Shown here in pieces: positions 20,014 through 47,180 of a stretch of 64,000 bases of DNA. Every line of letters begins with the position of its first letter. Position 1 is the first letter of the stretch. The position numbers and the translations under genes are program-made. Source of the DNA: Armatimonadota bacterium (GTDB lineage Bacteria > Armatimonadota > UBA5829 > DTJY01); assembly GCA_025358205.1 (NCBI GenBank), contig JANYKG010000082.1, positions 551 to 64,550 on the forward strand, in the 5' to 3' direction. The notes beneath the pieces were generated by a model. The model ran no database searches. It was not told the DNA's origin and worked only from the letters and a program-made list of their open reading frames with translations.

Positions 20014-20069
20014 GCTCTGGTTGAGTGCCAGATAATTGGACAGCCGTGGTTCGGGAGGCCGTTAAGGAT

Positions 20070-21860
20070 ATGGGAACAGCAAGAAGAGATATAGGCGATC
20101 TGCTCATCGAGGCGCAAGTGATTACGCTGGAGCATCTTACCGAAGCGAAGGAAGTGCAGAAGAGCGCGCCTGGTGATTTGGGTCAGATTATACTGGACTT
20201 GGGGTTTGCGAACTCGAAACAGGTTATGCAGGCGCGCGCGCGTCTGATGAATATACAGTTTGTTGATCTTGCCACTCAGAAGCTGGACCCTGCGGCGTTG
20301 GCTGCGGTACCGGAGCATGTGGTGAGACGTCACTGTGTCATCCCGGTGTTTAAGAACGGCAACCGCCTGATGGTGGCCATGAGCGACACACAGAACATCA
20401 AGGCCATGGACGACCTTAGAGTCGTAACTCGTGGTATGCAGGTAGTTCCCGCCCTCGCTCTTCCTGACGCGATAATCGAAGCCATAGAGCGGCATTACAA
20501 GGGCGGCGACGGCGACGGCGCCTCTGCTGCCACTTCAGAAAGCGGTCTGCCTGTACCACCGAACGTAAACACACTGGAGAATTCGATTGGCGGCGGGCTG
20601 GCAGGCGTAAAGGATGCCATCGAGTCGTATAAATCGCGTGACATTGGCGATGAAGAAGACCCGGACGCGGTGGCGCAGATATCCGAGCAGGCTCCAATTA
20701 TCCGTGTGGCCAACACTATTATTCAGCAGGCGGTTCAGGTGGGCGCCAGTGATATCCACGTGGAACCGGACAGGCGGCACGTGCGAGTGAGATACCGCGT
20801 TGACGGTGTGTTGCACGAAGAAATGACCATCCCTAAGTATATTCAGGCGCCGCTAATCTCCAGGTTCAAGATCATGGCTGAGATGAACATCGCCGAACGG
20901 CGCGTACCACAGGACGGACGCATCCCGGTTCGCAAAGACGGCAAGGACTATGACCTTCGCGTGAGCTGCCTTCCTACGATCTGGGGCGAGAAGATTGTAT
21001 GCAGAATCCTGGACAAGAGCAGCGTACTTCTGGGTCTGAACAAGCTGGGTTTCAACAACGAAAACCTGGCCAAACTGGAAGAGATCATCACCCAGCCTAA
21101 CGGTATGTTCCTATGCACAGGCCCTACCGGTTCCGGCAAGACCACCACACAGTACGCCGTACTTCACAAGATTAACTCCGTAGATAGAAACATCATCACT
21201 GTTGAAGACCCGGTTGAGTATCAGCTTTCAGGTATCTCTCAGGTTCACGTGAACGTGAAAGCCGGATTGACGTTCGGCGGCGCACTTAGGTCGTTTCTGC
21301 GCCAGGACCCGGATATCATCATGGTCGGAGAAATGAGAGACTTGGAGACCGCCGAGATCGCGGTTGAAGCGTCTCTGACCGGTCACCTTGTTCTCTCAAC
21401 TCTGCATACCAACAACGCTCCTTCCGCCGTTATCCGAATGGTTGATATGGGAGTGGAGCCTTATCTTATATCCGCGACCGTTCACGGCGTACTGGCGCAG
21501 AGGCTGGCGCGAAAGATTTGCGCTCAATGCGGAGAGGACTACCAGACACATGCGAGCGATTTGAGGGTGCTGGGATACGAACCCAAGGACAAGGATGAGA
21601 TGGTCACCCTGCGCAGAGGGCGGGGCTGCGAGGTCTGCCGCCATACCGGGTTCAAGGGCAGAACCGGTATCCACGAGTTGATGACCATGAACGATGAAAT
21701 CGCGGAACTTACCGTCCGTCGCGCGCCGCTGGCAGACATCCGAGAGGCAGCGAAGGCGAACGGTATGCATGACCTGCGAGACGATGGCCTTGAGAAGGTC
21801 ATGAGCGGAGTCACCACGATCGAAGAGGTCAAGAAGGTTGTATTCACCGCCGGTCACTAG
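20070..21860 (+). CDS. pilB: type IV pilus assembly ATPase PilB (GspE family)
   Basis: N-terminal GSPII_E_N-like domain, Walker A CTGPTGSGKTTT, Asp/His boxes and a tetracysteine motif (CAQC...CEVC). The stop TAG 21858-21860 lies inside the CTAG terminus of repeat copy C. Confidence 0.9.
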   Translation: MGTARRDIGDLLIEAQVITLEHLTEAKEVQKSAPGDLGQIILDLGFANSKQVMQARARLMNIQFVDLATQKLDPAALAAVPEHVVRRHCVIPVFKNGNRLMVAMSDTQNIKAMDDLRVVTRGMQVVPALALPDAIIEAIERHYKGGDGDGASAATSESGLPVPPNVNTLENSIGGGLAGVKDAIESYKSRDIGDEEDPDAVAQISEQAPIIRVANTIIQQAVQVGASDIHVEPDRRHVRVRYRVDGVLHEEMTIPKYIQAPLISRFKIMAEMNIAERRVPQDGRIPVRKDGKDYDLRVSCLPTIWGEKIVCRILDKSSVLLGLNKLGFNNENLAKLEEIITQPNGMFLCTGPTGSGKTTTQYAVLHKINSVDRNIITVEDPVEYQLSGISQVHVNVKAGLTFGGALRSFLRQDPDIIMVGEMRDLETAEIAVEASLTGHLVLSTLHTNNAPSAVIRMVDMGVEPYLISATVHGVLAQRLARKICAQCGEDYQTHASDLRVLGYEPKDKDEMVTLRRGRGCEVCRHTGFKGRTGIHELMTMNDEIAELTVRRAPLADIREAAKANGMHDLRDDGLEKVMSGVTTIEEVKKVVFTAGH

Positions 21861-21936: not shown

Positions 21937-21984
21937 TTGCCGGTGCGGAGAAAAATGCCGCGGCACTGTACACGGAGGCATGAG

Positions 21985-23157
21985 TTGCAGGAAAGTAACA
22001 TAACGACACAGATGTCATCGAGGGCCAATGGCCGGGGTACATCTGTCGAAGATATTCACATAGATGATTTGCTCCGCCTGATCGTGGAGCGCGGCGCGTC
22101 CGACCTGCATCTGGCGGTGGGTTTGCCGCCGATCCTGCGCACGGACGGCCAACTGGTGCAGACCGCGTATGCATTCCTGACGCCTCAGGATACTCAGCGG
22201 CTGATGTACGACATTCTGACCGATGAGCAGGTGCAGCGGTTCGAGTCGGCATTCGAACTGGACTTTTCCTATTCCATTGAGAAGCTGTCAAGATTTCGCG
22301 TGAATATTTTCAAAGACAAAGGCACAGTTGCGGCCGCGTTCAGGGTCATCCCCCAGAGAATTCCGACAATCCGCGAACTTGGGCTTCCACTCGTCCTTGA
22401 GGATCTGACCCGAAAGCCCAGAGGACTCATTCTAGTCACCGGTCCTACCGGATCAGGAAAGTCTACCACCCTTGCCGCGATGCTGAATCTGATTAACACC
22501 GAGCGAAACGTTCATATCATCACCATCGAGGACCCGATTGAGTACCTGCACACCCACCGAAGCAGCGTTATCAATCAGCGCGAACTGGGATCAGACACTA
22601 AGTCGTTCTCGAATGCGCTCAGGTCATCGCTGCGCGAAGACCCGGATGTGATTCTCGTTGGTGAAATGCGCGACCTGGATACTATCTCCACCGCCATTAC
22701 GTGCGCTGAAACGGGTCACCTGGTGCTGGCTACGTTGCACACGAACAACGCGCCTCAGACGGTGGACCGTATGGTAGACGTTTTTCCGTCCGATCAGCAG
22801 GAGCAGATACGCTTCATGTTGTCCAACAACCTGGAAGCGGTGGTTTGTCAGCAACTGCTTCCGAGAGCGGGTATGCCGGGCCGAGTGTGCGCCATGGAGA
22901 TCATGATGGCGACACCGGCAATACGTAACCTGATTCGGGAAAGCAAGGCCCACCAGCTTACGTCTGTGATACAGACCAGCGCCAACGTGGGCATGCAGAC
23001 GATGGATCAATCGCTCAGGGATCTGTACCAGAAGGGTCTTATTTCCTACGACGAGGCGCTCACCCGGTGTATGAACCCGGATGAGTTCAAGACAATGGTA
23101 TCTACTACCACCACGCGCGGCGGACGACCGCAGGCAGCGCCGGGCGGCTCTCAGTAG
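21985..23157 (+). CDS. pilT: type IV pilus retraction ATPase PilT
   Basis: Walker A GPTGSGKSTT and PilT-type motifs are present. TTG 21985 is proposed as start because GGAGG lies 6 nt upstream. The alternative ATG at 22012 has no RBS. Confidence 0.85.
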   Translation: MQESNITTQMSSRANGRGTSVEDIHIDDLLRLIVERGASDLHLAVGLPPILRTDGQLVQTAYAFLTPQDTQRLMYDILTDEQVQRFESAFELDFSYSIEKLSRFRVNIFKDKGTVAAAFRVIPQRIPTIRELGLPLVLEDLTRKPRGLILVTGPTGSGKSTTLAAMLNLINTERNVHIITIEDPIEYLHTHRSSVINQRELGSDTKSFSNALRSSLREDPDVILVGEMRDLDTISTAITCAETGHLVLATLHTNNAPQTVDRMVDVFPSDQQEQIRFMLSNNLEAVVCQQLLPRAGMPGRVCAMEIMMATPAIRNLIRESKAHQLTSVIQTSANVGMQTMDQSLRDLYQKGLISYDEALTRCMNPDEFKTMVSTTTTRGGRPQAAPGGSQ

Positions 23158-23278: not shown

Positions 23279-24514
23279 ATGGCAACTTTTGCATATACAG
23301 TCAAAGACGCAGCGGGAACGATGAGGAAAGGCACCTCGGAAGGCGAGAACGAAGCCGTTGTGGTTCGTCGCCTGCAAGAGCAGGGGATGACGATCGTCAA
23401 CATCAAGCCGGGCAAAGCGGCCAAGGCCAAGTCCGGCGGCGGTGGGTTTGGCAGCGTCAAACTTGTTGACCTTTCCATTTTCTGTCGGCAGTTCTCTACC
23501 ATGGTTGACGCGGGTGTATCACTGGTGCGGTGTCTTACCGTTCTTAGCGAACAGTCAACCAGCCCCAAATTGCGACGAATCATCACCGAGATCGAGCAGG
23601 AAGTTCAGAGCGGACAGACGCTCTCGAAGGCGATGGCGAGGTATCCGGGCGTCTTCAACAGCCTGTTCATCGGTCTGGTCAAAGCAGGTGAGGTCGGCGG
23701 CGCGTTGGAGGAAAGCCTGCAGCGGTTGTCCGGATTCCTTGAGAAGGACCTGCAGCTCAGACGCAAAGTCAAAGGCGCCATGACGTATCCTACAATCGTT
23801 CTCGTAGTTGCGGTGACCATCGTCATAGGTCTGGTTACTTTCATAGTTCCGCAGTTTATGACCCTTTTCACCGACCTAGGCATGAAGCAAACGGACATGC
23901 CCAGCATGACTCGGTCGCTGATGCAATTCAGTAATTTCCTCACTACCAAGTGGTGGATATGCTTGCTCGTCGTCATTTCGTTTGTGGTTGGCATCAAGAT
24001 GTTTGGGAATACTAAAGTAGGACGCAGAGTTCTTGACCGCGTCAAACTAAAAGCGCCGGTCTTTGGTCCATTGAACCACAAAGTGTGCCTGGCCAGGTTC
24101 TCCCGGACCCTCGCCACATTGCTGTCGAGCGGTGTACCCATTCTTTCGGCCATGGAGACGGTGGCAGGCACGGTGGCCAATGAGATTCTTGGTGACGCGA
24201 TTTTGAACGCGCGGACCAGAATCCGTGAAGGTGACCGGATTGGTGAACCGCTGCAGAAGAGCAAGCTGTTCCCCCCGATGGTAGTGCAGATGATCAGCAT
24301 CGGCGAGGAATCCGGTTCGCTGGACAACATGCTTATGAAGGTGGCTGACTTCTACGAGGACGAGGTGGATGCGGCGCTGGAAAGCCTGACGTCCGCTATT
24401 GAACCTATCATGATCGTTGTTCTGGGTAGCGCTGTAGGATTCATCGTAATCGCTATGTTCAGCCCGCTTCTGGCGGTCATCTCTAACCTGAGTTCCGGCG
24501 GCGGAACCAACTAG
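23279..24514 (+). CDS. pilC: type IV pilus inner-membrane platform protein PilC (GspF family)
   Basis: Two T2SSF-like repeats with transmembrane segments. RBS AGGGAG. The stop TAG 24512-24514 lies inside the CTAG of copy E. Confidence 0.9.
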   Translation: MATFAYTVKDAAGTMRKGTSEGENEAVVVRRLQEQGMTIVNIKPGKAAKAKSGGGGFGSVKLVDLSIFCRQFSTMVDAGVSLVRCLTVLSEQSTSPKLRRIITEIEQEVQSGQTLSKAMARYPGVFNSLFIGLVKAGEVGGALEESLQRLSGFLEKDLQLRRKVKGAMTYPTIVLVVAVTIVIGLVTFIVPQFMTLFTDLGMKQTDMPSMTRSLMQFSNFLTTKWWICLLVVISFVVGIKMFGNTKVGRRVLDRVKLKAPVFGPLNHKVCLARFSRTLATLLSSGVPILSAMETVAGTVANEILGDAILNARTRIREGDRIGEPLQKSKLFPPMVVQMISIGEESGSLDNMLMKVADFYEDEVDAALESLTSAIEPIMIVVLGSAVGFIVIAMFSPLLAVISNLSSGGGTN

Positions 24515-24614: not shown

Positions 24615-25463
24615 ATGCCGGAATGGCTGGGCGTAGCAATAGCAGTGCTGTATGGAACGATAGTCGGCAGTTTTCTGAACGTCTGTATATGGCGTCTGCC
24701 ACGGGATGAATCGTTGACGCATCCGGGTTCGCATTGCCCGCAGTGCGGAAAACTACTCCGTGCGTGGGATTTGGTCCCGCTGTTCAGCTTTCTGCTGCAG
24801 GGGTGCAAGTGCCGATACTGCAAAGGGCCTATCACCTGGCGTTATTTTAGCGTGGAGTTGCTCACCGGAGTGTACTTCGGGTTAGCGTACATGTTTGCTC
24901 TGAATAATTCCAATGCCGTGGTTGTGGACTTCCTGCAGTATGCTTTGTTCGGCGCTGCGCTGATAGCGATCTTCTTCATTGATCTGGAGCACTGGATAAT
25001 CCCGGATCAACTCAGTGTTTTTGGAATAGTTCTAGGGATTGGGCGGGATGTCTACGGCTTGGTAAGCCATACCAGAGAAACGTTCCACATTCCGGTGCCG
25101 TGGACGAGCCTGAGTGTTCCGTTACCGCAGTCTTTGGCGGGAATTTTCGCCTGTGGTGGAACATTTCTTGCCATTGCCGTAGTCAGTTACTATATATTCA
25201 AGAAGGAAGGCATTGGCGGTGGTGACATCAAGCTGGCCGCTGCAGTGGGGGCGAATCTGGCGCTTGGCCCGGCGATGCTATCCTTCTTCATAGCGGTTGC
25301 GCTGGGAAGCTTCATAGGCATAGGGCTTATGATTTTCGGGAGGAAGTCTCGAAAGGATTATGTGCCTTTCGGTCCGATGATGGTAGCAGGCGCCTTTGTT
25401 TCGATGTTTTACGGACAAACACTCATAAAGATGTATTACAGACTCGTTGGACTGGACGGCTAG
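24615..25463 (+). CDS. pilD: prepilin peptidase / N-methyltransferase PilD (A24 family)
   Basis: N-terminal tetracysteine CPQC...CRYC and the DiS-P-DiS core with transmembrane helices. Confidence 0.9.
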   Translation: MPEWLGVAIAVLYGTIVGSFLNVCIWRLPRDESLTHPGSHCPQCGKLLRAWDLVPLFSFLLQGCKCRYCKGPITWRYFSVELLTGVYFGLAYMFALNNSNAVVVDFLQYALFGAALIAIFFIDLEHWIIPDQLSVFGIVLGIGRDVYGLVSHTRETFHIPVPWTSLSVPLPQSLAGIFACGGTFLAIAVVSYYIFKKEGIGGGDIKLAAAVGANLALGPAMLSFFIAVALGSFIGIGLMIFGRKSRKDYVPFGPMMVAGAFVSMFYGQTLIKMYYRLVGLDG

Positions 25464-25493: not shown

Positions 25494-26423
25494 ATGCTAT
25501 CTTACAAACAGAGAAGTGGAATGACTCTCATTGAGCTGCTGGTAGTTATCGCCATCATCGGCGTGCTGGCAAGCATGATCTTTCCTGTGGCGTCAGCCGC
25601 CAAGGCGCGGGCCAAGAAGGCCCAGTGCATGAACAACATGATGCAGATTTTCACCGCTCTTAAGCAGTTTCAGCTTGACGAGCACAAGTACCCCGAGTTT
25701 ATCGTCGGCCCGGTTCAGTGGAAGGACAGTAATGGGATGTACACATACATGGCCGGCGGAACCATCGTGACATTGAACCAGAATACAGGTATGGTTGGCG
25801 GTCCGAACGGCGGCAATGGCCGAGCGGTAGCTCTGTACCCGGAGTATATCAGCGAGTTGGGCAGCATCAAATGTCCGACGTCCGATTTGAATGAGGATTG
25901 GGTTTCGCCTCCAGTAGGCTCTTCTCTGGGAATGGGTCGTCCTTACACAACCGGTATGCGGCTAAATGCATCCGGCACGCTAGTTGAAGACAATGAGTCC
26001 ATTTCTCTTGACCCGATGTTTCCGATTTTGAGCGCTTTCAACAAGGGCCCTGTCCCGTTCAGAGGCAAGGGACCGGCGGGTGACGGTTCCAAAGCGTTTT
26101 CGGTGTACAAGTACAGCAGCTATGACTATCAGAGACCGCTGAAAACAGCCGCTACCGGTGAGATTCACTACAGTACGAGCTGGAGTGACTATGACCCGAC
26201 TAAGCCGATGTCTACTCAACCCGGGATTGAGCGTCAGCTCAGGTGGCGCACGCCGCCATCGGATACGGTGGTAACCTGGTGTGCGTATCATCGGAATATG
26301 TCCGGGAGTGGTGTGCCGACAGGCGCAAGCAAGGACACTGTTCTGTTCCTGGACGGGCATGTTGACCAGAAGCCAAGTCCTGCCTTTATTCCGTGGACGA
26401 CAGGATGGAATACGGTTCCTTGA
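25494..26423 (+). CDS. prepilin-type N-terminal methylation-domain protein of the DUF1559 (H-X9-DG) type; candidate major pilin
   Basis: Leader MLSYKQRSG followed by MTLIELLVVIAIIGVLA, with Glu at +5. The C-terminal motif VLFLDGHV is typical of DUF1559. RBS GGAGGG. A terminator-like hairpin follows. Confidence 0.8.
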   Translation: MLSYKQRSGMTLIELLVVIAIIGVLASMIFPVASAAKARAKKAQCMNNMMQIFTALKQFQLDEHKYPEFIVGPVQWKDSNGMYTYMAGGTIVTLNQNTGMVGGPNGGNGRAVALYPEYISELGSIKCPTSDLNEDWVSPPVGSSLGMGRPYTTGMRLNASGTLVEDNESISLDPMFPILSAFNKGPVPFRGKGPAGDGSKAFSVYKYSSYDYQRPLKTAATGEIHYSTSWSDYDPTKPMSTQPGIERQLRWRTPPSDTVVTWCAYHRNMSGSGVPTGASKDTVLFLDGHVDQKPSPAFIPWTTGWNTVP

Positions 26424-26446: not shown

Positions 26447-26492
26447 GGGATAACCGCGTGCAAGCAGGCAGGCGGTTATCTTGCATTTCGTG
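26447..26492 (+). terminator. terminator-like hairpin after the DUF1559 pilin gene
   Basis: Stem GGGATAACCGC (26447-26457) / GCGGTTATC (26472-26480) with a 14-nt loop, followed by TTGCATTTCG. The U-tract is weak, so it may only be partial. Confidence 0.4.
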
Positions 26493-26663: not shown

Positions 26664-28505
26664 ATGCCAGTGATCCGAAGCCTGCGCGATAGAACCGGCA
26701 CGTCACTGATTGAGGTGCTGATAACGCTGGTGGTATTTCTCACCGGTATGGTATACGTTGTCCGCATGTTCCCAGGCGGTTTTGTCAGCCTGAGGCATGA
26801 TGAGAACGTGACAGCGGCTAACCGTCTTGCCCAATCTGAGCTTGAGCGGCTGCAGGGCAGGGCGATCAACCTGCCAACAGGAATCCTGCCTTGGGGTTGG
26901 GACGGCACGGCGTATAATGTGCTTCCGTTGACCGACCCGGAGAACATGGACGACCAGGACACCAAAGGTCTGAGCATGCCGGCGAACTTCGACATGTACT
27001 ATAACACCGACGTGAACAAGTTCCGCCGCGTGCTGGGTGAGTACACGCGCATTCCATCCCCGATCACCACGAACGGTAATGTTGGCTCCATATACGTATT
27101 GCAGTACAGCCCGGTGATGGCTACCGATGTCACCTTCGCGAGTAACGACAATCCCGTACTGGTTGCGGGTGGCGCGCTAAGGCGGAGATGGGTCGCCTCC
27201 GGTCAGGCAGTGGCTTCCAGACTCAGGAGTTTTGGTGACTATGCCATTGATTATGATGAAGCAAAGATTTATCTGCGGCCCTCCACTTCCGCGAATCCCA
27301 GAAGATTCCTGATTAACTATTCCTACTGGGCGGGTAGCGGAACCAGTATGACTCTGACGCCGGTGATAGGAGTCCCTATCATTGTTGGTCCGGCAATCAC
27401 GTCAGATGTCAGCCGCGGATATGTGAAGATTGATATCCCTGCTCCTACAGGAGGTCTGATCAAGGCGGCAACCGGGTTTGACAGCATAGACCGTGCGAGT
27501 GATGTGCTCTCCAGACAGTTCGAGCAGTTGGCTGTTGGCACGGCATGGAGCACTGACGATCCGTATGAGTTTAAGATGATTGATCCGTACCGCGGAGTGG
27601 TGGCATTCAATCCTAGCGGATATTCGTATCAGGAATACACCGCGCGCGGCAGGCAGCCTCTGGTCGCGAACATCACCTATACAGTTCTGGACTGGCATAT
27701 TATCCGCGAAGAGCGCAAGTTGCCGTCCGTGTTGAACAGCGCGGCAGACCAGGACGTGAAGCTCACACTTCGCTACATCAAGGAGAGCGGTGAGACTGAG
27801 GAGTACGGTGGCGGAATGTACCAGGGACTGGCTCCTAACTACGGCTTGCCGTTTGACGTGATAGCGGTTGATGTGGAAACCGGGCTTTGGTACACGAATG
27901 CTGCTGGGTCAGTTGTTCCAGGCACAACACGCCCGGCGATGATGGTGGATTACAAGGGTGGAGTGATTAGATTCGACCCGGGATTTGTGGCGATTCACGC
28001 CAATGATTCAACGAAAGTCAGTCCGTTTGCCGGGAAGTCGTTCCGCATATTCTACCGTGCGGAAGGTGATTGGGCTGTGCAGACCTACAAAGCCTATGAG
28101 AGCTACCAGCGCAGCTACAACAATGGCATTAGCGGCTTGGATCAGCGGCAGTATTTCATGAATGGCAGTCTTCTCTACGTGGCTCAGTGCAACGCGGGCG
28201 GCACGGTGACCGTTGATTTTGCTTATACAGTCGGCAACAACCCACAGGAGTTATTCGCATCCGGCCAGGTTTATCAGATAAACGACGGCAGTGATAGCAG
28301 TATCCCTCCGTTCTGCGCGGACTTGACCTCAAGCTTGAGAAGCACCTACGGAGCTGGAGCCTTGATAAACGTCACCAGGGTCACGAAGGTCAATGGAGTA
28401 TCGCTTGGTGTAAGAGTGATATGGAGGGAATCCGGACGAGGATTCAGCGCCGGACGCTGGCGGAAGATCAAGCTTGAGACTTATCTTACACGATCAGATA
28501 GCTAG
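26664..28505 (+). CDS. PilV-like giant minor pilin (~613 aa)
   Basis: Class-III leader MPVIRSLRDRTG followed by TSLIEVLITLVVFLTGM, with Glu at +5. ATG 26664 has a GGGTGA RBS. The C-terminal ~550 aa are uncharacterised. Alternative upstream in-frame starts exist at 26586-26643. Confidence 0.7.
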   Translation: MPVIRSLRDRTGTSLIEVLITLVVFLTGMVYVVRMFPGGFVSLRHDENVTAANRLAQSELERLQGRAINLPTGILPWGWDGTAYNVLPLTDPENMDDQDTKGLSMPANFDMYYNTDVNKFRRVLGEYTRIPSPITTNGNVGSIYVLQYSPVMATDVTFASNDNPVLVAGGALRRRWVASGQAVASRLRSFGDYAIDYDEAKIYLRPSTSANPRRFLINYSYWAGSGTSMTLTPVIGVPIIVGPAITSDVSRGYVKIDIPAPTGGLIKAATGFDSIDRASDVLSRQFEQLAVGTAWSTDDPYEFKMIDPYRGVVAFNPSGYSYQEYTARGRQPLVANITYTVLDWHIIREERKLPSVLNSAADQDVKLTLRYIKESGETEEYGGGMYQGLAPNYGLPFDVIAVDVETGLWYTNAAGSVVPGTTRPAMMVDYKGGVIRFDPGFVAIHANDSTKVSPFAGKSFRIFYRAEGDWAVQTYKAYESYQRSYNNGISGLDQRQYFMNGSLLYVAQCNAGGTVTVDFAYTVGNNPQELFASGQVYQINDGSDSSIPPFCADLTSSLRSTYGAGALINVTRVTKVNGVSLGVRVIWRESGRGFSAGRWRKIKLETYLTRSDS

Positions 28506-28558
28506 GCCGCATGACTCACGAAGGGCGTGAATCATGCGCTTCGTGCATAGTGCATGCG
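28502..28558 (+). repeat. degenerate double-hairpin repeat, copy F
   Basis: Sequence CTAGGCCGCATGACTCACGAAGGGCGTGAATCATGCGCTTCGTGCATAGTGCATGCG. Hairpin 1 is retained with one mismatch and hairpin 2 is eroded. The CTAG contains the stop codon of the PilV-like gene. Confidence 0.5.
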
Positions 28559-28578
28559 AACAGGGAAGTGATGCAGGT

Positions 28579-30408
28579 ATGCCCAAGTTGAGATTAGATA
28601 ATAAAGGGTTCACCCTGATAGAAATACTGGTGGTGCTGGCGCTGACCATGCTGGTCATGGGCCTGATCTTTTCGCCGCTCGTGAGCAGCCTGAAGGTTAC
28701 GCGCAGCGCGGAGATCATCATCAGGACGCAGGACAATGCCAGATTGGCGCTGGCTCAGATAACCTCTGATCTGAGCAATGCCATGTATGTGTATGATGAC
28801 ACCGAGAACTACATGAACTTCCCGGTGAAGGATGCAACCGGGGCTTCGGCGGTGGCGCGGGTATACAACTCCAAGGTTGACATGATCCTGCCGAGAGTAC
28901 GCCAAGTTTGCCCGAAGGATGCATCACACACGCCAGAGAAACCGGCGAACGAACTGGAAGAAGTAGGTCCTGTGTGCCAGGTTTGCGGTGAAAGGCTGGA
29001 GTCGAAACCTATTCAGCCGCTGACACAGGATACCAAGATTGTGCGGTATTTCATCGGGCTGAAGGACCCCACGCAACCGTATACGAATGGTTATACGGAT
29101 CAGTTGGCGGAGGCGGGAGCGCCGGATAATTCTCATATCCTGTATCGGGTGGAGTTCGATCCGATGGACCCCACGCTCTTCCCGGCGCTTGACCCGGTCA
29201 CCGGTAATCCCAGAACCGCGGACGACAACAGGCAAGACGAGAACTTTTTTTACAATACTTCGATTGCCCCCGATGGCAGGTCGTTTGCCGATAACTGGAA
29301 GAAGATAGTCCGCCCGGTGGTACAGTTGGAAGGCGTGGACCTGATTACGCTGGACTTTGATGATGCCGGCAAACCGGTTGTGACCCCATTGGCGAAGTTC
29401 GCTCCCACCGCCATCTACAACGATCCGCTGGTTCCCACATCTTCAAACGAGGATAACCCTGAGCGCGGAGATGCTCCTCCTGCCACGTACAAGGCGTCTT
29501 ACGGCTACTGGGTGATGCCGTACAAGGTGACACTGGAGCCGGAGGGTGGCAACGGGGAAATTTATGAGACCAACAGAGGGATGGGACTGAGCGGTGTGGC
29601 TGATCCGAGCAACAACATGTGCATATACAAGATGGACCCCACAGCAGCGCCCATGCTTGTCTTCAACATCACGCACTACGAAACCACAAAAGCTATATCG
29701 GCTTACGGCATGGGTGATATCAACGTTCCGATCACAGACCGTCAGCGCATCTTTACAGTGGACACCATGAAGGGCACCGTGAACTTTGCGTTCCCGAACA
29801 TTGACCCAACAAAATCCGCCGCGTTTAATGCCAGGCTTGCCGGCGGTGCAACGCAAAACCGTTCGCTGAGTGACCTTGCCAGTACGGACAAGATATCCCT
29901 GGACCCGGCTACGAAGTTTTTGCTGAACTGCCCGCACATTGGAACGGGGGCATACGATCCACGGATTCTCAACAATGGAACGGTGGTTCCAGGCTCGGTG
30001 AAGGTGATTGCGCCTGATGCTCTGCAGTCTGCTTCCGTACCGCCGTTGGTAACGTACACCAAGGTGCCGTATCTCCTGAGCGAACCGGCGGCCAATCAGT
30101 ATAACGTGGATATGTCATACAACATGGATGAGAGCAACGCTGTAATGCCCGGTGTCGCGGCTTTGTATTTCAACCGACTCAGGGGCGTGGGTTCCGGTGC
30201 GCAGCCCTCACTTCCCAGTGGCACAGACAATGTTCTTATTTACTATAAGGTTCAGAACAACAAAAAGGGCGACGTGCTGCGGGCGAATTACATCACCAAG
30301 AGCGTGATGACTGTGACTGTGGGCATACATATCTACGATACCGGAGCGAAAAAGCCCCAGTCAGTGCAGTTCACGAGCCGCGTCCGCCTAAAGAACATCG
30401 CGTTGTGA
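28579..30408 (+). CDS. PilW-like giant minor pilin (609 aa)
   Basis: Leader MPKLRLDNKG followed by FTLIEILVVLALTM, with Glu at +5. The downstream QDNARLALAQITSDLSNAMYVYD resembles the PilW conserved region. An internal CQVCGERLE Cys pair is present. Confidence 0.72.
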   Translation: MPKLRLDNKGFTLIEILVVLALTMLVMGLIFSPLVSSLKVTRSAEIIIRTQDNARLALAQITSDLSNAMYVYDDTENYMNFPVKDATGASAVARVYNSKVDMILPRVRQVCPKDASHTPEKPANELEEVGPVCQVCGERLESKPIQPLTQDTKIVRYFIGLKDPTQPYTNGYTDQLAEAGAPDNSHILYRVEFDPMDPTLFPALDPVTGNPRTADDNRQDENFFYNTSIAPDGRSFADNWKKIVRPVVQLEGVDLITLDFDDAGKPVVTPLAKFAPTAIYNDPLVPTSSNEDNPERGDAPPATYKASYGYWVMPYKVTLEPEGGNGEIYETNRGMGLSGVADPSNNMCIYKMDPTAAPMLVFNITHYETTKAISAYGMGDINVPITDRQRIFTVDTMKGTVNFAFPNIDPTKSAAFNARLAGGATQNRSLSDLASTDKISLDPATKFLLNCPHIGTGAYDPRILNNGTVVPGSVKVIAPDALQSASVPPLVTYTKVPYLLSEPAANQYNVDMSYNMDESNAVMPGVAALYFNRLRGVGSGAQPSLPSGTDNVLIYYKVQNNKKGDVLRANYITKSVMTVTVGIHIYDTGAKKPQSVQFTSRVRLKNIAL

Positions 30409-30466
30409 AGATGACATTCCGTTCGTAGCAGTACGGCGCGGAAGGGGAGAAGGTAGCAGAGAAAGC

Positions 30467-33373
30467 ATGGATAGAAAAAGCCGAACTTCATTCTTCACCA
30501 ATATGGTAGTATCTCGGCGTGGGCAGACACTTGTGCTTGCGCTGATTATCCTGTTCATGCTGGTATTCCTGGGCGGGCTGTTCGTGACACTTATTGCGCG
30601 GAATCTGGCCCGAACCAGGCGCAGCGGCCAGACGTTGACCGCGGAATACCTTGCAGAGACAGGTGTGCGGTATGCCAGCGATCAGCTTACGTACAGTCTG
30701 GACGGCGCGGACTGGCGTCCGGTGCCGAACTACCCGGATGTGATAAGAAATCTGAATGGCGACAACATAACCACTCCGGTAAAGCCGAACCTATCTGACC
30801 CGGACTACGATTGGCTGACGAAGGGATATTGCCGATTCACGTATGGGGACGGTAGATTTCTCATCAGAGTAACTTATGAACCCAAGTTCGGTGATCCTAT
30901 CTCCAAGTACATCAAAATCGAATCCATAGGCCGTGTGGGCGTCGTGGACGAAAACGACCCTACAACGCTGGACCTGAAGCAGCCGCTACGCCTGAGAGCG
31001 GAACGTGTGGCGTACAAGGCTATCGGCATTACGGATTACTCCAGGTTCATCACAAATCAGGACAGGCGCACGGAGGCATTTGGCTTGGGCGTTCCGGCTT
31101 ACACTCAGCCCAACGGCTTGAAGCAAGCGTTCACCACTCAGTATGGTGACGTGAGTGACTATAACGGTGACACCATACCGGAGCCGCACGGTGGGTCAAT
31201 CCGCGTGAACGGCAACCTGACTTGGTACGGCAAGAACTTCATCTGGCTGGACGCTAAGCATAACGAGGCTGTGGAAGTGGCAGGGGATATCAGTCACGCT
31301 GTGGAGTGGTCCGGCGGCGGCAATGGCCCCACGCCGGAATCCACGATGGTGTACCTGAATCCTGACCGCACTATCTCAGGCTGGCGGACGAATCTTCTCT
31401 TGCGGCAGAGTTCTGATCCGTATTTTGATACCAGCACGGATAACCCAAGTGCGTCTGTGGGCGTGTATCGAGACGGTCGGCCCGAAGGTGATGTCGGCGT
31501 TACGATTGCCGGAGTTTTGCATCGCAGACCGCGCGGCATACAAAGGCTTGATCCGCCGCTGCTCGATGTTACCGGTCCGACAGGCGGCACGGGCAGATAC
31601 CGCGAACTCACTCGCAACTCCGGCGAATGGCTGCCCCCCGCATCTACTGGAGGCACGTGGTACAACACCGGTTTCTACGGATGGGGTAAAGGCCTGTACA
31701 TCAACAACCGAGACGACCTCCAGACCGAGTCTGATCTGAAGACGCTGAGGGATGATTGGATGAACCCCGGCGAATCGCAGAACTGGGTTGGACCGTACTA
31801 CAACCCGCCTGGAATAATCATGGTGCTTACGCCATATGATCTTGACAACGATGATGGCGATAATAACCCGATGACAGGCAAGCCGGACATCATTCTGATG
31901 GAGTCGAACACGTCAGGGGCGAAGTTCAACTGGTATGACAAGAACGGTGGCATCATTACACCCGGCGCCGGGCAGATGGTGATGCCCTATCCCGAGAACG
32001 GCATCATTTTTGCGGAAGGCAATATTCGCATCAAGGGTATGCTCGCGCCGCACAAACAGCTCACCGTGGTTTCGGCGGGTACTATCTATGTGGAAGGGAA
32101 TGTTCTGAAGTGCGGGCTTAAAGACGATGGCACTCCAATGCTGCCGACCGATCCTAAGGACAGCAGCATTGCGCTTCTGGCCACCGACTACGTTGCCGTG
32201 AATGCCACTCAGTTCTTCGGACCCGCGCCGGAGAGCCAGACTCCTGGTAGCTGGCGTCCTGAAATGGGCGGGTTTGATGCGTCGGTGGACCATCCGTTGA
32301 GTTTCGACTTCGCGTTCGGCATGGACCCGTCCGCATGGTATGGAACTATGCCCGTATGCGCGTATGTGCGTCATGCGGCGGACGGCGGCTCTGCTTACAT
32401 GAATATGACGGTCAACCAATTTGGCGCAGGGGCTGATCCGGGCGATCCCACTGATCAATGGTATGGCTTCTACAAGTTCGACATGCAGCCGTGGAGTACC
32501 CTTATTCCGCCTGCTCAGCCCGCGCGGCAGTACATCTACCCCATGGCGGATATTGATGCGGCGGCGACGGTGTTTCCGGTTCCGCCAAATAGCCCGACGG
32601 ATCAATCCAACCTTGTGGCGGTGCAAACTTACCCAATATGGGAGCATCAGGTCTTCACGATATTCCCGCTGAGTAACCCGCCCAGGCCGGATCAGAACTA
32701 TGCGCTGAATATCTTCCCCGGTTCCAGCAATCAGATCGGCTTCCGGCTGGATCAGAACATAGCGAAAGCGGATTACCTGCTTTCAAGGTTCGCAGTGCAG
32801 CCTTGTGACATTCGCGTGGAGGCGATGCTGTACGCTCAGAACGGGTCTTTCTACGTGATATCGGGTGCGCCGTTCAACCCTGATCCAGGCGACAGCAGAA
32901 ATGAGTTCCTGAAGGGGAACGCTGCCGTTTCGGGGAGGCTGGCACGCATGGGCATTGATGAGCGGTGGCCTTTCTATGGTGAGCCGCTGGATGTGCGTTT
33001 GATTATCAACGGTTCGGTGAGCGAGAACGTCAGCGCGCCGATAGCGGATCAAGCAGCATGGATGTCGGCGTGGGGGTGGATTCCGCCCTCACACGGATCG
33101 AGTCCACTGCCGGCGGATGAGGTCATCGGGTACCGGTCGCCTCTCGATCCTGAGAACTCGGAGACTGTTGCGGGCACTAGTGCGTTGCCTGTTCGTCAGC
33201 GTGGGCTATCCATCATCTACGATGATATGCTTTCGTACCCGAAGGTGCCTACTGTTGCCACAGATAGAACCAAGGACGTGCAGATCAGGCGTGATCTTTA
33301 TCTGCGGCCGTTAGCCGTTACGCCAAAGCTGCCGGTGAGCAGTCAGACAATATTCTTTGGCCGTCCCACTTGA
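30467..33373 (+). CDS. PilX N-terminal-domain protein, 968 aa
   Basis: The N-terminus RRGQTLVLALIILFMLVFLGGLFVTLIARNLARTRRSGQTLTAEYLAETGVRYASDQL matches the PilX_N pattern. RBS GGGGAGAAGG. The large C-terminal region has no clear homology that I can assign. Confidence 0.7.
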   Translation: MDRKSRTSFFTNMVVSRRGQTLVLALIILFMLVFLGGLFVTLIARNLARTRRSGQTLTAEYLAETGVRYASDQLTYSLDGADWRPVPNYPDVIRNLNGDNITTPVKPNLSDPDYDWLTKGYCRFTYGDGRFLIRVTYEPKFGDPISKYIKIESIGRVGVVDENDPTTLDLKQPLRLRAERVAYKAIGITDYSRFITNQDRRTEAFGLGVPAYTQPNGLKQAFTTQYGDVSDYNGDTIPEPHGGSIRVNGNLTWYGKNFIWLDAKHNEAVEVAGDISHAVEWSGGGNGPTPESTMVYLNPDRTISGWRTNLLLRQSSDPYFDTSTDNPSASVGVYRDGRPEGDVGVTIAGVLHRRPRGIQRLDPPLLDVTGPTGGTGRYRELTRNSGEWLPPASTGGTWYNTGFYGWGKGLYINNRDDLQTESDLKTLRDDWMNPGESQNWVGPYYNPPGIIMVLTPYDLDNDDGDNNPMTGKPDIILMESNTSGAKFNWYDKNGGIITPGAGQMVMPYPENGIIFAEGNIRIKGMLAPHKQLTVVSAGTIYVEGNVLKCGLKDDGTPMLPTDPKDSSIALLATDYVAVNATQFFGPAPESQTPGSWRPEMGGFDASVDHPLSFDFAFGMDPSAWYGTMPVCAYVRHAADGGSAYMNMTVNQFGAGADPGDPTDQWYGFYKFDMQPWSTLIPPAQPARQYIYPMADIDAAATVFPVPPNSPTDQSNLVAVQTYPIWEHQVFTIFPLSNPPRPDQNYALNIFPGSSNQIGFRLDQNIAKADYLLSRFAVQPCDIRVEAMLYAQNGSFYVISGAPFNPDPGDSRNEFLKGNAAVSGRLARMGIDERWPFYGEPLDVRLIINGSVSENVSAPIADQAAWMSAWGWIPPSHGSSPLPADEVIGYRSPLDPENSETVAGTSALPVRQRGLSIIYDDMLSYPKVPTVATDRTKDVQIRRDLYLRPLAVTPKLPVSSQTIFFGRPT

Positions 33374-33417: not shown

Positions 33418-33547
33418 TGGAAGTGGAACACAGCGGGCCTCAAAGTCGTTTAACTAAGTGTGACCTTGACCTGCATTGTTCATGGAGAACGTGAATCACG
33501 CAGGTTATAGAGGAAACGCGTCCGACGCGTATTGGATGGTGAGTGAA

Positions 33548-36500
33548 ATGGCAAGACGATTCGTCAGATACACATTCGCAATAATGCTCTGTGCGGTGTT
33601 GACCACCGGGGCGCTATACGCTGCCAGCTTTACCTACTCAGACCAGGCGAAGCGGATCAAGGCCGGGGTGGTGTTGCCTTCCCTGCCTCCTCCTCCCCCT
33701 CTAGATCCTCGCATGGATCCGGCCAACCGCCCGAACCCATACGTGTTTTATATTATGGATCAGCGTCAGGACATGAAGCCTGCGGGCTGGGAGTTCTACA
33801 ATCCATACGCGTCTTCGCATGTTACCACAGACATGGCGGCCAGATGGGGCGGCATGTGCGCGGTAGGCGACGTTATTGATAAGTCCATGGGGTGTTACTG
33901 GGAGGTTCCGATCGGTGAGGTGAACCCAGACGATCTGGCGCAGTACGATGTGCTTTTTCTCAGCGGATACGGCAACATGACGTTCAACGGCCGCGAGAAG
34001 GAGAAGCTGCGGAAGTTTGTGGATAACGGCGGTGTGCTGTGGGTTGACTATCAGCAGAAGCCAGGGTATCCGGGTCTTCAGACGACGCTTGACCCGACGT
34101 TTTTCGTGCCTTCGATAGCGTTTTCAAATGGCGGCGTGGGTATGAGCGTGCGCGCGGATATCCCGAAAGCGGCAAGTGCGCATGCGCTCTTGAACAGACC
34201 TTTCCTCGTTTCAGGCATGGATGCGAATCTTCTGGGGGGTGGCGGCGGTGCGGCGCCTGGCAATGAATTCTTGAGTCTGGTTGGTGAGGCGCTGCAGACA
34301 TTCATGCCGATAGTGGCGCGCGGCGGCAACCAAGTGGTTTCGGCGGCGCAGTACGGCAGCGGGTACATTGTTGTTACCGCGGACGGCGTGGCGCAGGCGA
34401 TCACCAATCCGGTTGGCGTGGCCGGCGCGGTGTGCGGCAAGTTCTTCATTGCGGCGCAACCGGAGGATCTGAAGCTTTCGTACAACATCGTGAACTGGGG
34501 ATCGGAGTCCCCGGCTCCACGGAAGAACCCCAGACAAACGGGGGGTTCTTTTGAGGAGATAGGTATGCCCCTGGTGCCGCTGTGGAGTTATACCGCGACG
34601 ACGCCCGGCATGAGTGTGAACAGCTCACCGGTTATTCTCGATGACATGATATTCTATGTGGACGGCAACAATGTGCTGCATGCATTCGACTTGTCGCCGA
34701 TACGCGACCGTGACGGAGATGGGAATCCCGATGACGGCCTCCCTGACTACTCGACCGGATCGCCGTGTGACGAACTATGGCGGGTAAGCATTGGTGAGCC
34801 TTGCTCTTCTCCTACTGCGGCCTATGTTCCCATCGGCGGAGGGGTAGTCGGCGCGGTTCCTACCGTGTTCATTGTGACCCAATCAGGCAAAGTGACTGCC
34901 TACAACGCGCTGGATTACACCACAAGTACGGGGCCTACGCCAGTGCAGCTCTTTACTGATTCCAGCCAGGCGCTAAATCCGTTTGTCTTCCCGCCTACTG
35001 CACTTGATACGCGAATACCTGCTGCCACCTATGCTGAGGGTTCGCTCTATGTGGGCGACGGACGTGGGGTTATACACGTTCACAACTTCTTATCTACAGG
35101 CGCAGTCCCGGAATGGAGACACGTGGCCATAGCAAACAATCCGGCTGATGGCATGATTTCGAACTCGCCTACCGTCGGCTATTTTTATGACGCAACCAGC
35201 GGCGCTACCGAGTTGGTTGCCTATCTGAACGGGCGCGGGACGCCTACTCTGGGGGCGAATCCTTATACCGCAGCATATCCTTTAAGTTCGTTCAATGAGA
35301 CACTTGTCCCGGATAATCCAGCAGCTACCCCAGGTCTGTATCGCATACGTTCTGTAAATGCCTATATCGCCACGACTCCGATTGCTCCATTTGATCCGAG
35401 ATTGTACTATACCGACCCCACAACCGGCGCCTTGAATCCAATTCCTACTACCGACTATACACTGCAGAACCCAGGGAAGTTTCAGATTATCAATCCTTCC
35501 GCAACTCTGACGACCATCACCGCATTGGGCGCGTCCGTGGTTGCAGACTATTGGCTTGACTACACGAACCCAGCGGCAACAACGTCGTGGCGATCCATCC
35601 AGATCTGGGGTAACGATAACCCTCTTGACAAGTTGGGCATTACAGGCTCGGCTGCTGCAGGCAAGAACAACACTCTGTATTACGGCACCGAGAACGGCTC
35701 CATTTATGCCGTCAGGGAGACTGGTCGGGCCGGAGCGACCATTGGTGGGGGACCGCTGAGAACTCCTCTTGTGGTGAAGTGGCGCTGGTGCTTCCAGGAC
35801 CCAACTGTCAAAGCGGTAATCGGGACCAATAATGTTGAGATTGTCGGATCACCGGTAGTGGTGAACGATATGGTGTATTTCGGTGTGAATATTGGCAACC
35901 AGGGATTCCTTTTTGCGTTCCAGGCCGATCCGGCGTTTACCATCAGGCTCAATCAGCCGATAGCGCCTAATACGCAGGTGATTCTGAAGCAGATGGACTC
36001 CTTGAGACCGACGACGCCAGTTGCCGGTGTGCCAAGGAATTACGTGGCAGCATCTGACACGGACGTTGACAAGGCGGCGGGTGATACGGTTGCTCTGGTG
36101 GACTATGATACCAGCAAGATATCCGTCATCAACTTCAAAGGTGTTGGCGGCGAGTTGACGTCTTCGGCTGACCTCGTTGTGGAGTATGTCCCGGCGGCCG
36201 CGGTGGTACCCGGTCAGACGCCTATTCCGATTCAGGAACCTCATTACGCGTTCCTGCCGAACTCCGGCGACAATTGGAACAACCTGAAATGGTTCATGAG
36301 ACTGGAGGATATCTCGGTCAATCCGGTAATGAACTACAAGATAGCGTCATCCCCTACGGTGATGGGAGACGTTCTGTACATCGGTTGCCAGGACGGCACC
36401 ATGATCGCGGTGGACGTGGGCAAGGCGAACCAGGCCGCTCCCAAGCAGATGTTGGGCAATGTGCAGGAGAAGTATTTCAAGAATATCCTGACAATCACCG

Positions 36501-37858
36501 ACGGCTATGTGTGGCCCAATCAACTTGTGGCGCCAACCAATTCTAATCCGCAGATTTGGGGATCCCCGACCGGATCGCACGGCATGTTGGCCGTCGCAAC
36601 TTCCGATGGACTCAGCGTAATGTACAATCCGACCAGCCTTGTGGCAGACGGAAACCGTTTGGTGGAGATTGACGCGCAGGGCAAACCTATATGGTCGTGT
36701 GATTCCACTACCGGGTTCGCCAGCACGTTCGCGGTGGGCGCAACCGCCTCGCAGGACCAGACAGTGGTGGGGTCGGTAACCATGCCGTTCAACCGTCCGA
36801 GTGTGGCAAGGCGCGCCCCGGTAGGCGGCTTAGTGGTTGCGGATACGGGTAATAACAGAATAGTCCATATGGACAAGGGCGGCACGGCGATTTGGCAGAT
36901 CAAGGACTTTGGCGAGGAGAACCCTGCCACACCGGTGCTTCCGCCGGGGTCGCCAATGGAGTTGAACAAACCGACCGACGTGACATGCTGGATGACCACG
37001 ATGCCGGTAACGCTCGGCGCTAGTACGACGCCGGTGATGCTGCCGATCTACCACTATCTGATAGCGGATAACGGCAACAACCGGGTGCTGGAGATAGTGT
37101 GTAAGTATGACACCGCGCTGGGCCAGTACCGCAACATGGTGGTGATGGTATCCGATAACCTGGCGCAGGGTGAGCCGAGGCGGTTCCTTACCGCGCGGAT
37201 AGCCACCTATGACAATGTTACGGGGCAGATCGCCACTGTGATATGCGTGATGGCCAACGATCCCGGTAGCACGGGCGCACGGGGACTAGGCAGTTCGCTG
37301 GTTGAATTGGACTGGAAGACCGGCAAGCTTCTGAGCGTTACGAATCGTTTGCCTATAGGCGCAACGGCGGCGACCAGCTTCAAGCTGGTGAACCCTTCGT
37401 TCTTCAATAGGCAGTATGTAAGCGGCACGGAGTACGCTGATGTGACGATAGACGCTTCGGGTGTGCATGTGAATCATGTGGCTGGAGGAGTATCATCCAT
37501 CCGGCACTATCTGTTCACGGATCATTGGGATACGGACGAGACTTCGTTGATGAATAAGCTTCTAATTCAGGTTCCTGGAATGCCCGTTGGCACAACTGCC
37601 CCGCATGCCAGACCGTTCGCGCCGAGTTACGCGCAGTACATGCCGAACGGGCATGTGCTGGTGACGAACAAGGCGACCGGCATTGCATATGATAAGACTA
37701 AGACGCAGAGGGCGTTTACCGGTGAGGTATTTGAGATCGAACCGGAGGATGTAACAGTAGACCCGACCAAGACAAAGTTCAAGAGAACCCCTGGCTCCAG
37801 CATATGGTACACGGCGGGGTTCCATCAGCCCTTGAGCGCTGAACGATTGTTGTACTAG
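33548..37858 (+). CDS. giant secreted beta-propeller protein (~1436 aa) with PQQ/NHL-like repeats; PilY1-like candidate
   Basis: ATG 33548 has a GGTGAG RBS. The signal peptide is MARRFVRYTFAIMLCAVLTTGALYAAS. Repeated propeller blade motifs occur (NVLHAFDL, GKVTAYNAL, GSIYAV, GTMIAVDV), and the C-terminus has NHL-like blades (ADTGNNRIVHMD, ADNGNNRVLEIV). The track start at 33476 is an upstream extension. Confidence 0.7.
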   Translation: MARRFVRYTFAIMLCAVLTTGALYAASFTYSDQAKRIKAGVVLPSLPPPPPLDPRMDPANRPNPYVFYIMDQRQDMKPAGWEFYNPYASSHVTTDMAARWGGMCAVGDVIDKSMGCYWEVPIGEVNPDDLAQYDVLFLSGYGNMTFNGREKEKLRKFVDNGGVLWVDYQQKPGYPGLQTTLDPTFFVPSIAFSNGGVGMSVRADIPKAASAHALLNRPFLVSGMDANLLGGGGGAAPGNEFLSLVGEALQTFMPIVARGGNQVVSAAQYGSGYIVVTADGVAQAITNPVGVAGAVCGKFFIAAQPEDLKLSYNIVNWGSESPAPRKNPRQTGGSFEEIGMPLVPLWSYTATTPGMSVNSSPVILDDMIFYVDGNNVLHAFDLSPIRDRDGDGNPDDGLPDYSTGSPCDELWRVSIGEPCSSPTAAYVPIGGGVVGAVPTVFIVTQSGKVTAYNALDYTTSTGPTPVQLFTDSSQALNPFVFPPTALDTRIPAATYAEGSLYVGDGRGVIHVHNFLSTGAVPEWRHVAIANNPADGMISNSPTVGYFYDATSGATELVAYLNGRGTPTLGANPYTAAYPLSSFNETLVPDNPAATPGLYRIRSVNAYIATTPIAPFDPRLYYTDPTTGALNPIPTTDYTLQNPGKFQIINPSATLTTITALGASVVADYWLDYTNPAATTSWRSIQIWGNDNPLDKLGITGSAAAGKNNTLYYGTENGSIYAVRETGRAGATIGGGPLRTPLVVKWRWCFQDPTVKAVIGTNNVEIVGSPVVVNDMVYFGVNIGNQGFLFAFQADPAFTIRLNQPIAPNTQVILKQMDSLRPTTPVAGVPRNYVAASDTDVDKAAGDTVALVDYDTSKISVINFKGVGGELTSSADLVVEYVPAAAVVPGQTPIPIQEPHYAFLPNSGDNWNNLKWFMRLEDISVNPVMNYKIASSPTVMGDVLYIGCQDGTMIAVDVGKANQAAPKQMLGNVQEKYFKNILTITDGYVWPNQLVAPTNSNPQIWGSPTGSHGMLAVATSDGLSVMYNPTSLVADGNRLVEIDAQGKPIWSCDSTTGFASTFAVGATASQDQTVVGSVTMPFNRPSVARRAPVGGLVVADTGNNRIVHMDKGGTAIWQIKDFGEENPATPVLPPGSPMELNKPTDVTCWMTTMPVTLGASTTPVMLPIYHYLIADNGNNRVLEIVCKYDTALGQYRNMVVMVSDNLAQGEPRRFLTARIATYDNVTGQIATVICVMANDPGSTGARGLGSSLVELDWKTGKLLSVTNRLPIGATAATSFKLVNPSFFNRQYVSGTEYADVTIDASGVHVNHVAGGVSSIRHYLFTDHWDTDETSLMNKLLIQVPGMPVGTTAPHARPFAPSYAQYMPNGHVLVTNKATGIAYDKTKTQRAFTGEVFEIEPEDVTVDPTKTKFKRTPGSSIWYTAGFHQPLSAERLLY

Positions 37859-37996
37859 CAGGGAGTTTGTAGTCGCCCCTTTTATGGGTGCGCAGTTACC
37901 GCGCAGGCATGAAGCTTGCGGCTACAAGCAAGGATCAGGGATAGCTTTGACCGATCCTCGTTCAGTTGTTGGACGAGGTGGGAGGTGCAGTACATT

Positions 37997-47156: not shown

Positions 47157-47180
47157 TAACAGTGGAACTCTACTGCCGGC

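Follow-up and report, generated by a model that had tools for sequence, protein, structure and literature searches.

The window analysed here is a 64,000-nucleotide stretch of contig JANYKG010000082.1 from an Armatimonadota bacterium (assembly GCA_025358205.1), and it carries three consecutive + strand genes for large proteins with pilin-like N-termini. An initial annotation had described oversized pilin-like open reading frames (ORFs) of about 610, 609 and 968 amino acids (aa), and intact ORFs of 613, 609 and 968 aa are present. ORF1 (26664-28505, +) encodes the V-like protein, a PilV/GspI-like giant minor pilin of 613 aa with a 12-aa leader and a mature length of 601 aa (66 kDa). Its ATG start is preferred over an alternative GTG at 26586, which gives 639 aa, because the N-termini of homologues agree with the 12-aa leader MPVIRSLRDRTG|TSLIEV. 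ORF2 (28579-30408, +) encodes the W-like protein, which resembles PilW, GspJ and HpsC; it has 609 aa, a 10-aa leader (MPKLRLDNKG|FTLIEI) and a mature length of 599 aa (65 kDa), and its reading frame is open from 28534. ORF3 (30467-33373, +) encodes the X-like protein, a giant tip pilin candidate of GspK/PilX/ComZ type with 968 aa, for which predicted cleavage after Gly19 (...VVSRRG|QTLVLALIILF) would leave 949 aa (105 kDa). Both leader motifs quoted at the outset (RTG|TSLIEV and KG|FTLIEI) were located, as was the conserved block of the PilW-like protein, ARLALAQITSDLSNAMYVY within ORF2.

We read the trio as oversized proteins of minor-pilin-like type that belong to a type IV pilus locus because of their conservation, their synteny with a prepilin peptidase (PilD) and a pilin, their Gly-1 and Glu+5 residues, and the helix and sheet in AlphaFold models. 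The core of the original proposal is thereby supported.

The proteins and their relatives (54 of the V family, 68 of the W family and 50 of the X family) were screened with curated profiles, for which the cut-offs are 21.2 bits (N_methyl, PF07963), 16.3 bits (TIGR02532), 52.2 bits (PilV, TIGR02523) and 44.35 bits (GspI, TIGR01707). ORF2 clears both class-III models, with 28.3 bits for N_methyl and 19.0 bits for TIGR02532. ORF1 falls under the cut-offs (12.6-14.9 and 10.1 bits, respectively). N_methyl matches 66 of the 68 W relatives and 38 of the 54 V relatives, and Gly-1 and Glu+5 are kept almost throughout both families, in the form KG|FTLIE for W and G|(T/I/M)SL(I/V)E for V. The X-family N-terminus, RG|QSL(I/V)LAL, keeps Gly-1 and the hydrophobic stretch and has no Glu5; Gly19 and Gln20 of ORF3 are at least 90% conserved. 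The claim that all three proteins retain a class-III leader therefore stands for ORF2 and has family-level backing for the sub-threshold ORF1, but not for ORF3, which matches no model and lacks Glu5.

No curated PilV, PilW, PilX, GspI, GspJ or GspK model reaches its cut-off for any of the three. TIGR02523 matches 47 of the 54 V relatives weakly and over the helix only (17-32 bits versus 52.2, profile positions 2-55 of 139); ORF1 itself matches neither TIGR02523 nor TIGR01707 at E-values up to 1 and reaches neither cut-off. The best curated matches of the W family are HpsC (65/68), Verru_Chthon protein C (53/68) and GspJ, all N-terminal and sub-threshold. Beyond the helix, ORF2 has no direct Pfam or NCBIfam match (T2SSJ PF11612, TIGR01711, NF006453). 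A profile-profile comparison of its family with a T2SSJ-domain pseudopilin (P0076) gave an hhalign probability of 96.6% (E = 5e-10) over residues 6-161, which comprise the helix and the first strands, and the alignment of its terminal strands with a GspJ-type C-terminus is suggestive only and non-significant (E = 0.11). The W family also has a conserved cysteine pair, Cys111 and Cys133. ORF3 matches no pilin model, even at E-values up to 10 for its N-terminal 195 aa. Its N-terminus had been called PilX_N-like, a label that the profiles do not bear out: Pfam PilX_N (PF14341) is matched by 1 of the 50 relatives (E = 0.046) and not by ORF3. GspK (NF037980) is matched weakly by 5 of the 50 (best E = 4.8e-4). 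ORF3 is taken as a pilin because of Gly19-Gln20, its predicted fold, these weak GspK matches and its gene position.

Full-length homologues at 25-77% identity, mostly with 94-100% query coverage, number 62 for ORF1, 76 for ORF2 and 347 for ORF3, and nearly all carry an Armatimonadota label. A profile search places the ORF3 family in 936 clusters at 50% identity, with full-length members of about 820-1200 aa, and when species representatives were scanned, 320 species-level genomes proved to encode it. Looking up cluster members returned no useful names. For locus comparison we took the best 80 of the 320 genomes, one locus per species. Nearly all are Armatimonadota, among them Fimbriimonadales, Chthonomonadales, Capsulimonadaceae and Armatimonadaceae. 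Wherever the contig allows, the order pilin-V-W-X-propeller protein is invariant, with sizes of about 240-330 aa (pilin), 530-700 aa (V), 550-765 aa (W), 850-1100 aa (X) and about 1300-1700 aa (propeller protein); none of the 80 loci has a normal-sized V, W or X version. The architecture first seen in one genome is thus kept, in order and in size, across the phylum.

This conservation bears directly on whether the large sizes are artefacts of assembly or annotation, that is, frameshift fusions or read-through of smaller genes, the outcome that the initial annotation had named as fatal to its proposal. We found nothing in favour of an artefact. Full-length homologues come from independent assemblies and sources, lengths and gene order are kept in 80 species, an identical protein was recovered in a second dataset (P0077), and the AlphaFold2 models of ORF2 and ORF3 are confident full-length single chains. 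We reject the artefact explanation, to which we attach next to no credence, and the trio genes are confirmed as real. Signs of domain accretion in the DNA had also been suggested as something to look for; tandem repeats and compositional shifts are absent (GC 0.53-0.57 throughout), which gives no sign of recent accretion.

Some loci in the comparison are irregular. The X-like gene of Armatimonadota type, with its neighbours, also turns up in a metagenome-assembled genome (MAG) labelled Sedimentisphaerales (L003, DATKWR010000502.1; truncated W, X and the propeller proteins) and in a MAG labelled Propionibacteriaceae UBA6122 (L049, DIVW01000042.1; V-W-X-propeller). These suggest mis-binning, with horizontal transfer less probable. 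In L082 both the W-like and the propeller gene appear to be in fragments, as does the propeller gene of L006 and L021, which could reflect long-read assembly frameshifts or pseudogenisation.

AlphaFold2 was run with family alignments on ORF2 and ORF3, and the fold was read from secondary structure and coevolution. AlphaFold, which the initial annotation had recommended for the C-terminal regions, gave confident models: mean pLDDT, a per-residue confidence score, is 89.3 for ORF2 and 89.9 for ORF3, with pTM, a global confidence score, of 0.80 and 0.89. Both are predicted to have an N-terminal helix of 54-57 residues and a small antiparallel sheet of four short strands, a layout like that of pilins, whose alpha1 helix has ~53 residues, and then a large, mostly beta region. 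In ORF2 the helix spans residues 13-66 and the sheet 78-110, and a long conserved terminal hairpin occupies 566-603. The predicted pilin module of ORF3 (30524-31018, +) pairs the alpha1 helix at residues 20-76 with a sheet of four strands at 122-184, seen in the model and in couplings. It is followed by a predicted beta-rich mass at residues ~190-944 (31034-33298, +) and a conserved C-terminal segment at residues 945-968 (33299-33370, +), with a last strand at 961-965, its own couplings and the invariant residues R941, P953, L955, P956 and G965. Within the beta-rich mass, short strands follow one another in solenoid-like fashion at about 503-650 (NGIIFAEGNIRIKG...LTVVSAGTIYVEGNV), and 3 of the 50 X relatives match the Pfam FapA beta-solenoid model.

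The arrangement of these parts in ORF3 comes from mean-field direct coupling analysis (mfDCA) of 251 X-family sequences (effective number 223). Within the pilin module, couplings link helix and strands (70-133, 57-133 and 37-131) and strand and strand (134-152 and 116-179). The C-terminus couples to residues 79-181 through the pairs 79-954 (the second strongest overall), 945-181, 958-175, 962-126 and 960-146. The maximum coupling of segment 940-968 to the pilin module is 2.46, versus 0.92-1.20 for six mid-protein control segments. Because the C-terminus couples back onto the N-terminal pilin module, the mass of ~750 residues is best read, from coevolution and AlphaFold2 secondary structure, as inserted into a pilin fold that the C-terminus still closes, the topology of ComZ and of cyanobacterial PilX. 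The topology of ORF2 may be similar. For the V and W families (effective numbers 86-95), mfDCA is dominated by gap-column cliques and is uninformative, with one suggestive W pair, 100-577. The extra mass had originally been described as C-terminal extensions; its large size holds, but in ORF3 it appears to be inserted, with the final ~25 residues back on the pilin module.

The large regions had also been said to lack obvious homology, and searches of the trio against Pfam, NCBIfam and PDB sequences indeed return nothing beyond the N-terminal helix. PDB profile searches retrieve only pilin N-terminal helices for the V and W families and nothing for the X family even at E-values up to 10, and Pfam searches of excised pilin modules and inserts add nothing new. 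Foldseek finds no PDB match at E < 1e-3 for either model; for ORF3 it returns only weak matches of carbohydrate-binding module (CBM)/jelly-roll and tailspike/pectate-lyase-like type, with one marginal hit in BFVD. When the three families are aligned with one another and each with itself by hhalign, only the N-terminal helices align, and with the helices removed there is no shared or repeated domain. By this comparison the three modules are unrelated to one another. Duplication of a single enlarged pilin is rejected as the origin of the trio because no globular domain is shared, and repeat accretion is rejected as the origin of their size because there are no internal repeats; enlargement by either route lacks a signal.

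The trio is embedded in a complete type IVa pilus (T4aP) locus with every gene on the + strand, as annotated with Pfam and NCBIfam. Its upstream part encodes the PilB extension ATPase (20025-21860), the PilT retraction ATPase (21937-23157) and the PilC platform protein (23279-24514), with Pfam matches to T2SSE/MshEN and T2SSF. The 282-aa prepilin peptidase PilD (24615-25463; A24_N_bact 1e-32, Peptidase_A24 3e-13) is encoded 1.2 kb upstream of the trio and would be expected to cleave the pilin-like N-termini encoded downstream. Next comes a 309-aa pilin (25494-26423; MLSYKQRSG|MTLIELLVV...), with an N_methyl score of 32.7 bits and N-terminal matches to GspG and Myxococcus PilA. It is the candidate major pilin and the sole ordinary-sized pilin of the locus, and it is syntenic with the trio in loci that reach far enough upstream. 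A regular-expression scan of the whole window found four class-III-like N-termini, those of this pilin and of the trio. Elsewhere, in L011, L027, L036, L066, L074, L078, L081 and L082, two tandem pilin paralogues of about 250-330 aa lie upstream of the trio; either copy might fill the place of the absent GspH/FimU-like fourth minor pilin in those lineages. Between the 309-aa pilin gene and ORF1, which are 240 bp apart, a 10-bp inverted repeat at ~26449-26481 (+) (GGATAACCGC...GCGGTTATCT) could be an attenuator parting major-pilin from minor-pilin expression; it is absent from the output of a consensus terminator scan. In a promoter and terminator scan, sites were no more numerous than in shuffled sequence.

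Downstream of ORF3 lies the gene for a 1460-aa propeller protein (33476-37858, +; 1436 aa and 154 kDa from the annotated start at 33548), which has DUF4159, PQQ/NHL beta-propellers and a signal-peptide-like N-terminus. A propeller gene of ~1400 aa directly follows the X-like gene in every locus that continues past it, and this conserved adjacency makes the protein a candidate functional analogue of PilY1. In Pfam it matches only PQQ_2, NHL and DUF4159, with no PilY1/Neisseria_PilC match at E-values up to 1. The next gene encodes a secreted-looking protein of 2292 aa (37916-44794, +; Golvesin_C, PQQ-type propeller, GEVED), which lacks a PilY1 domain and is detected at that position only in closer relatives. 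The locus continues on the + strand with PilM (45016-46485, 489 aa; PilM_2), three small ORFs at the PilN/O/P position (46494-48653, assigned by position), a 238-aa protein whose N-terminal part matches the PilQ/HofQ N-domain in NCBIfam (48707-49423) and a secretin (49499-51169; Secretin, Secretin_N, STN). PilM is longer than usual: an insertion of ~130 aa with a high content of acidic residues, Pro and Ala cuts the PilM_2 match in two. The 238-aa protein, encoded just upstream of the secretin, has a long Gly/Met-rich low-complexity C-terminal tail (GGMMGGGMMGGGMGGGMGG...). Translations of the flanks show tRNA synthetases, YceG/MltG and shikimate dehydrogenase upstream, and L10, L7/L12, two RNA polymerase large-subunit genes, S12 and S7 downstream. 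With housekeeping genes on both sides, the pilus locus is part of the core chromosome and not an island. A 688-aa ORF among the upstream housekeeping genes (9436-11502, +) has no Pfam match.

We consider it likely that the trio are the core minor pilins of an Armatimonadota type IVa pilus, counterparts of GspI/PilV, GspJ/PilW and GspK/PilX, each with a large, unrelated beta-rich module built either into the pilin fold or onto it, and that together they form a giant tip and priming complex. PilD would cleave after the conserved Gly of each motif. By analogy with GspI-J-K, PilX and ComZ, the three N-terminal helices would bundle in the inner membrane as a staggered complex with the Glu5-less X-like protein on top. 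This complex and the adjacent ~150-kDa propeller protein, its probable PilY1-like partner, may provide the starting point from which PilB and PilC polymerise the 309-aa pilin. The complex would then ride the pilus tip through the secretin, displaying a beta-rich surface of ~235-390 kDa that may mediate attachment and, when PilT drives retraction, work as a stopper or plug. The initial annotation had allowed for either the pilus tip or the shaft; placement in the shaft is unlikely because the subunits are 65-105 kDa, while a tip or priming position fits GspK, PilX and ComZ.

Several observations weigh against this proposal. By themselves, the window ORF1 and ORF3 fail curated pilin thresholds. 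The PilV, GspJ, HpsC and GspK matches are all sub-threshold and, except for ORF2, limited to the N-terminal helix. For ORF2 and ORF3, secondary structure and coevolution are the only sources for the pilin fold, and Foldseek recovers neither GspK, ComZ nor any pilin for either model. The scan of N-termini in the window found no fourth minor pilin of GspH/FimU type, and Pfam detects no PilY1 domain in the downstream propeller protein at E-values up to 1. Passage of a 235-390 kDa tip is not self-evident either, because function in Myxococcus is blocked when PilW or PilY1 carries a bulky addition, possibly at the secretin (PMC7541494).

The same Myxococcus result keeps alive a non-extruded role resembling that of a type II secretion system (T2SS), which we regard as unlikely. 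Here the trio would be the tip of a pseudopilus or piston in the periplasm that pushes the 1436- and 2292-aa propeller proteins through the secretin, and the locus would mainly secrete proteins or display them at the surface, with no adhesive pilus tip. At the sequence level, relatives of ORF2 and ORF3 come closest to pseudopilins (HpsC, GspJ, GspK), but the 309-aa pilin matches Myxococcus PilA as well as GspG. Giant secreted-looking proteins always adjoin the trio, yet the 2292-aa one is detected at that position only in closer relatives. PilY1 has been likened to a T2SS substrate sitting on PilX, and a very bulky tip may not pass the secretin (PMC7541494); set against this, the locus has the PilT retraction ATPase and a PilM/secretin set of T4aP type, and no GspC-, GspL- or GspM-type component was detected with Pfam or NCBIfam. 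It is a little less probable again that at least one of the trio, the X-like protein in particular, is no filament subunit but a bitopic inner-membrane or periplasmic protein (accessory, alignment or cell-envelope) that keeps an uncleaved signal anchor. ORF3 fits this in matching no pilin model, in having no PDB or Foldseek pilin match, and in aligning its N-terminus with the V and W families at an hhalign probability of just 20-29%. It also lacks Glu5, but that is the norm for PilX and GspK (PMC7541494). The conserved Gly19-Gln20 stands directly before the hydrophobic stretch, the predicted 57-residue helix and four-stranded sheet closed by the C-terminus have the layout of a pilin, relatives have weak GspK-type matches, and in every locus covering the region the X-like gene, coming after those of V- and W-like type, stands where PilX/GspK would. 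These points argue for the tip pilin.

A bolder version of the tip and priming complex, which we think doubtful, would make it the largest known type IV pilus tip: a machine of ~390 kDa (~640 kDa with the 2292-aa protein) in which each core minor pilin bears a fold-novel beta module and a non-PilY1 propeller protein completes the complex. In polysaccharide-associated bacteria it could be a multivalent grappling hook that binds or cuts glycans, a role hinted at only by the weak CBM-like and pectate-lyase/tailspike-like structural matches. A tip of ~390-640 kDa would need an unusual route or conformation through the secretin.

Minor pilins determine the binding targets of a type IV pilus and the way its assembly is initiated, and subunits of 65-105 kDa test the cargo limit of the pilus tip and the secretin. 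The trio would extend the insertion theme of ComZ and cyanobacterial PilX to PilV- and PilW-type subunits. It would also provide three large, apparently new and confidently predicted modules in a poorly studied, environmentally widespread phylum, and an annotation handle for hundreds of proteins that are mostly unnamed or 'hypothetical'. A literature search found no description of Armatimonadota minor pilins.

Among known systems, Verru_Chthon cassettes encode prepilin-like proteins together with one very large member, protein A, according to their TIGRFAM descriptions. Of cassette proteins B, C and D (TIGR02598, TIGR02599, TIGR02596), ORF1 matches B and ORF2 matches C weakly at the N-terminus; scores are 14-20 bits versus cut-offs of 51-256, however, and ORF3 has no protein A match. 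ComZ of Thermus thermophilus has about 550 aa in all. It is a DNA-binding, GspK-like tip pilin with a beta-solenoid of ~380 residues inserted before the last pilin strand, and it is missed by PilFind (PMC6561018). ORF3 likewise escapes pilin predictors, has a probable beta-rich insertion, is probably too bulky for the shaft and so would sit at the tip, and has partner minor pilins encoded next to it. It differs in being larger, at 968 aa, in having no sequence or Foldseek match to any PDB chain, and in that ComZ has small pilins as partners, whereas the V- and W-like partners here have ~600 aa.

Cyanobacteria generally lack PilY1, and a bulky insertion module in their PilX homologues, the only subunits for which that preprint describes one, has been proposed to replace the PilY1 plug (bioRxiv 10.64898/2026.02.12.705559). 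HpsC is the best curated match of the ORF2 family (65/68), but in ORF2 it spans only the first ~70 residues at 35 bits versus a cut-off of 200, and ORF3 has no HpsA match. Here, in contrast, the V-, W- and X-like subunits are all giant, and the gene after them encodes a conserved propeller protein of ~150 kDa. In modular pilins such as Streptococcus sanguinis PilB (vWA) and PilC (lectin) and CofB, the added domains are C-terminal grafts joined by linkers and presented at the tip, in monoderm or type IVb systems (PMC8179133). Like these, the trio would present at the tip a functional module joined to a pilin; it differs in that the X-like module is a probable insertion with no matching fold and that three consecutive subunits carry different modules. 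None of the three families has an InterPro-type recognisable extra domain, the criterion for modular pilins, and the trio fits the wider category of large pilins without signatures; the extra beta-domains of CofB are themselves undetectable by domain signatures, and many more such modules are predicted (PMC8179133).

The systems of GspI-J-K and of PilV-W-X with PilY1 (PMC7541494) resemble the trio in gene order, class-III-like N-termini, a last subunit without Glu5, an adjacent large beta-propeller protein, a T4aP locus and the presumed priming and tip role. The Armatimonadota proteins are three to five times larger, the window has no GspH/FimU-like subunit, and its propeller protein is without a PilY1 domain. 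Minor pilins that are large or carry an insertion are already known in GspK, ComZ, CofB, S. sanguinis PilB and PilC, cyanobacterial PilX and HpsA (PMC6561018, PMC8179133, bioRxiv 10.64898/2026.02.12.705559), and the trio extends this theme of oversized tip pilins without founding a new one. What is new is that hypertrophy affects the whole set of three core subunits, whose modules differ from one another and are unmatched, that the arrangement is kept across a phylum, and that it is coupled to a non-PilY1 propeller protein.

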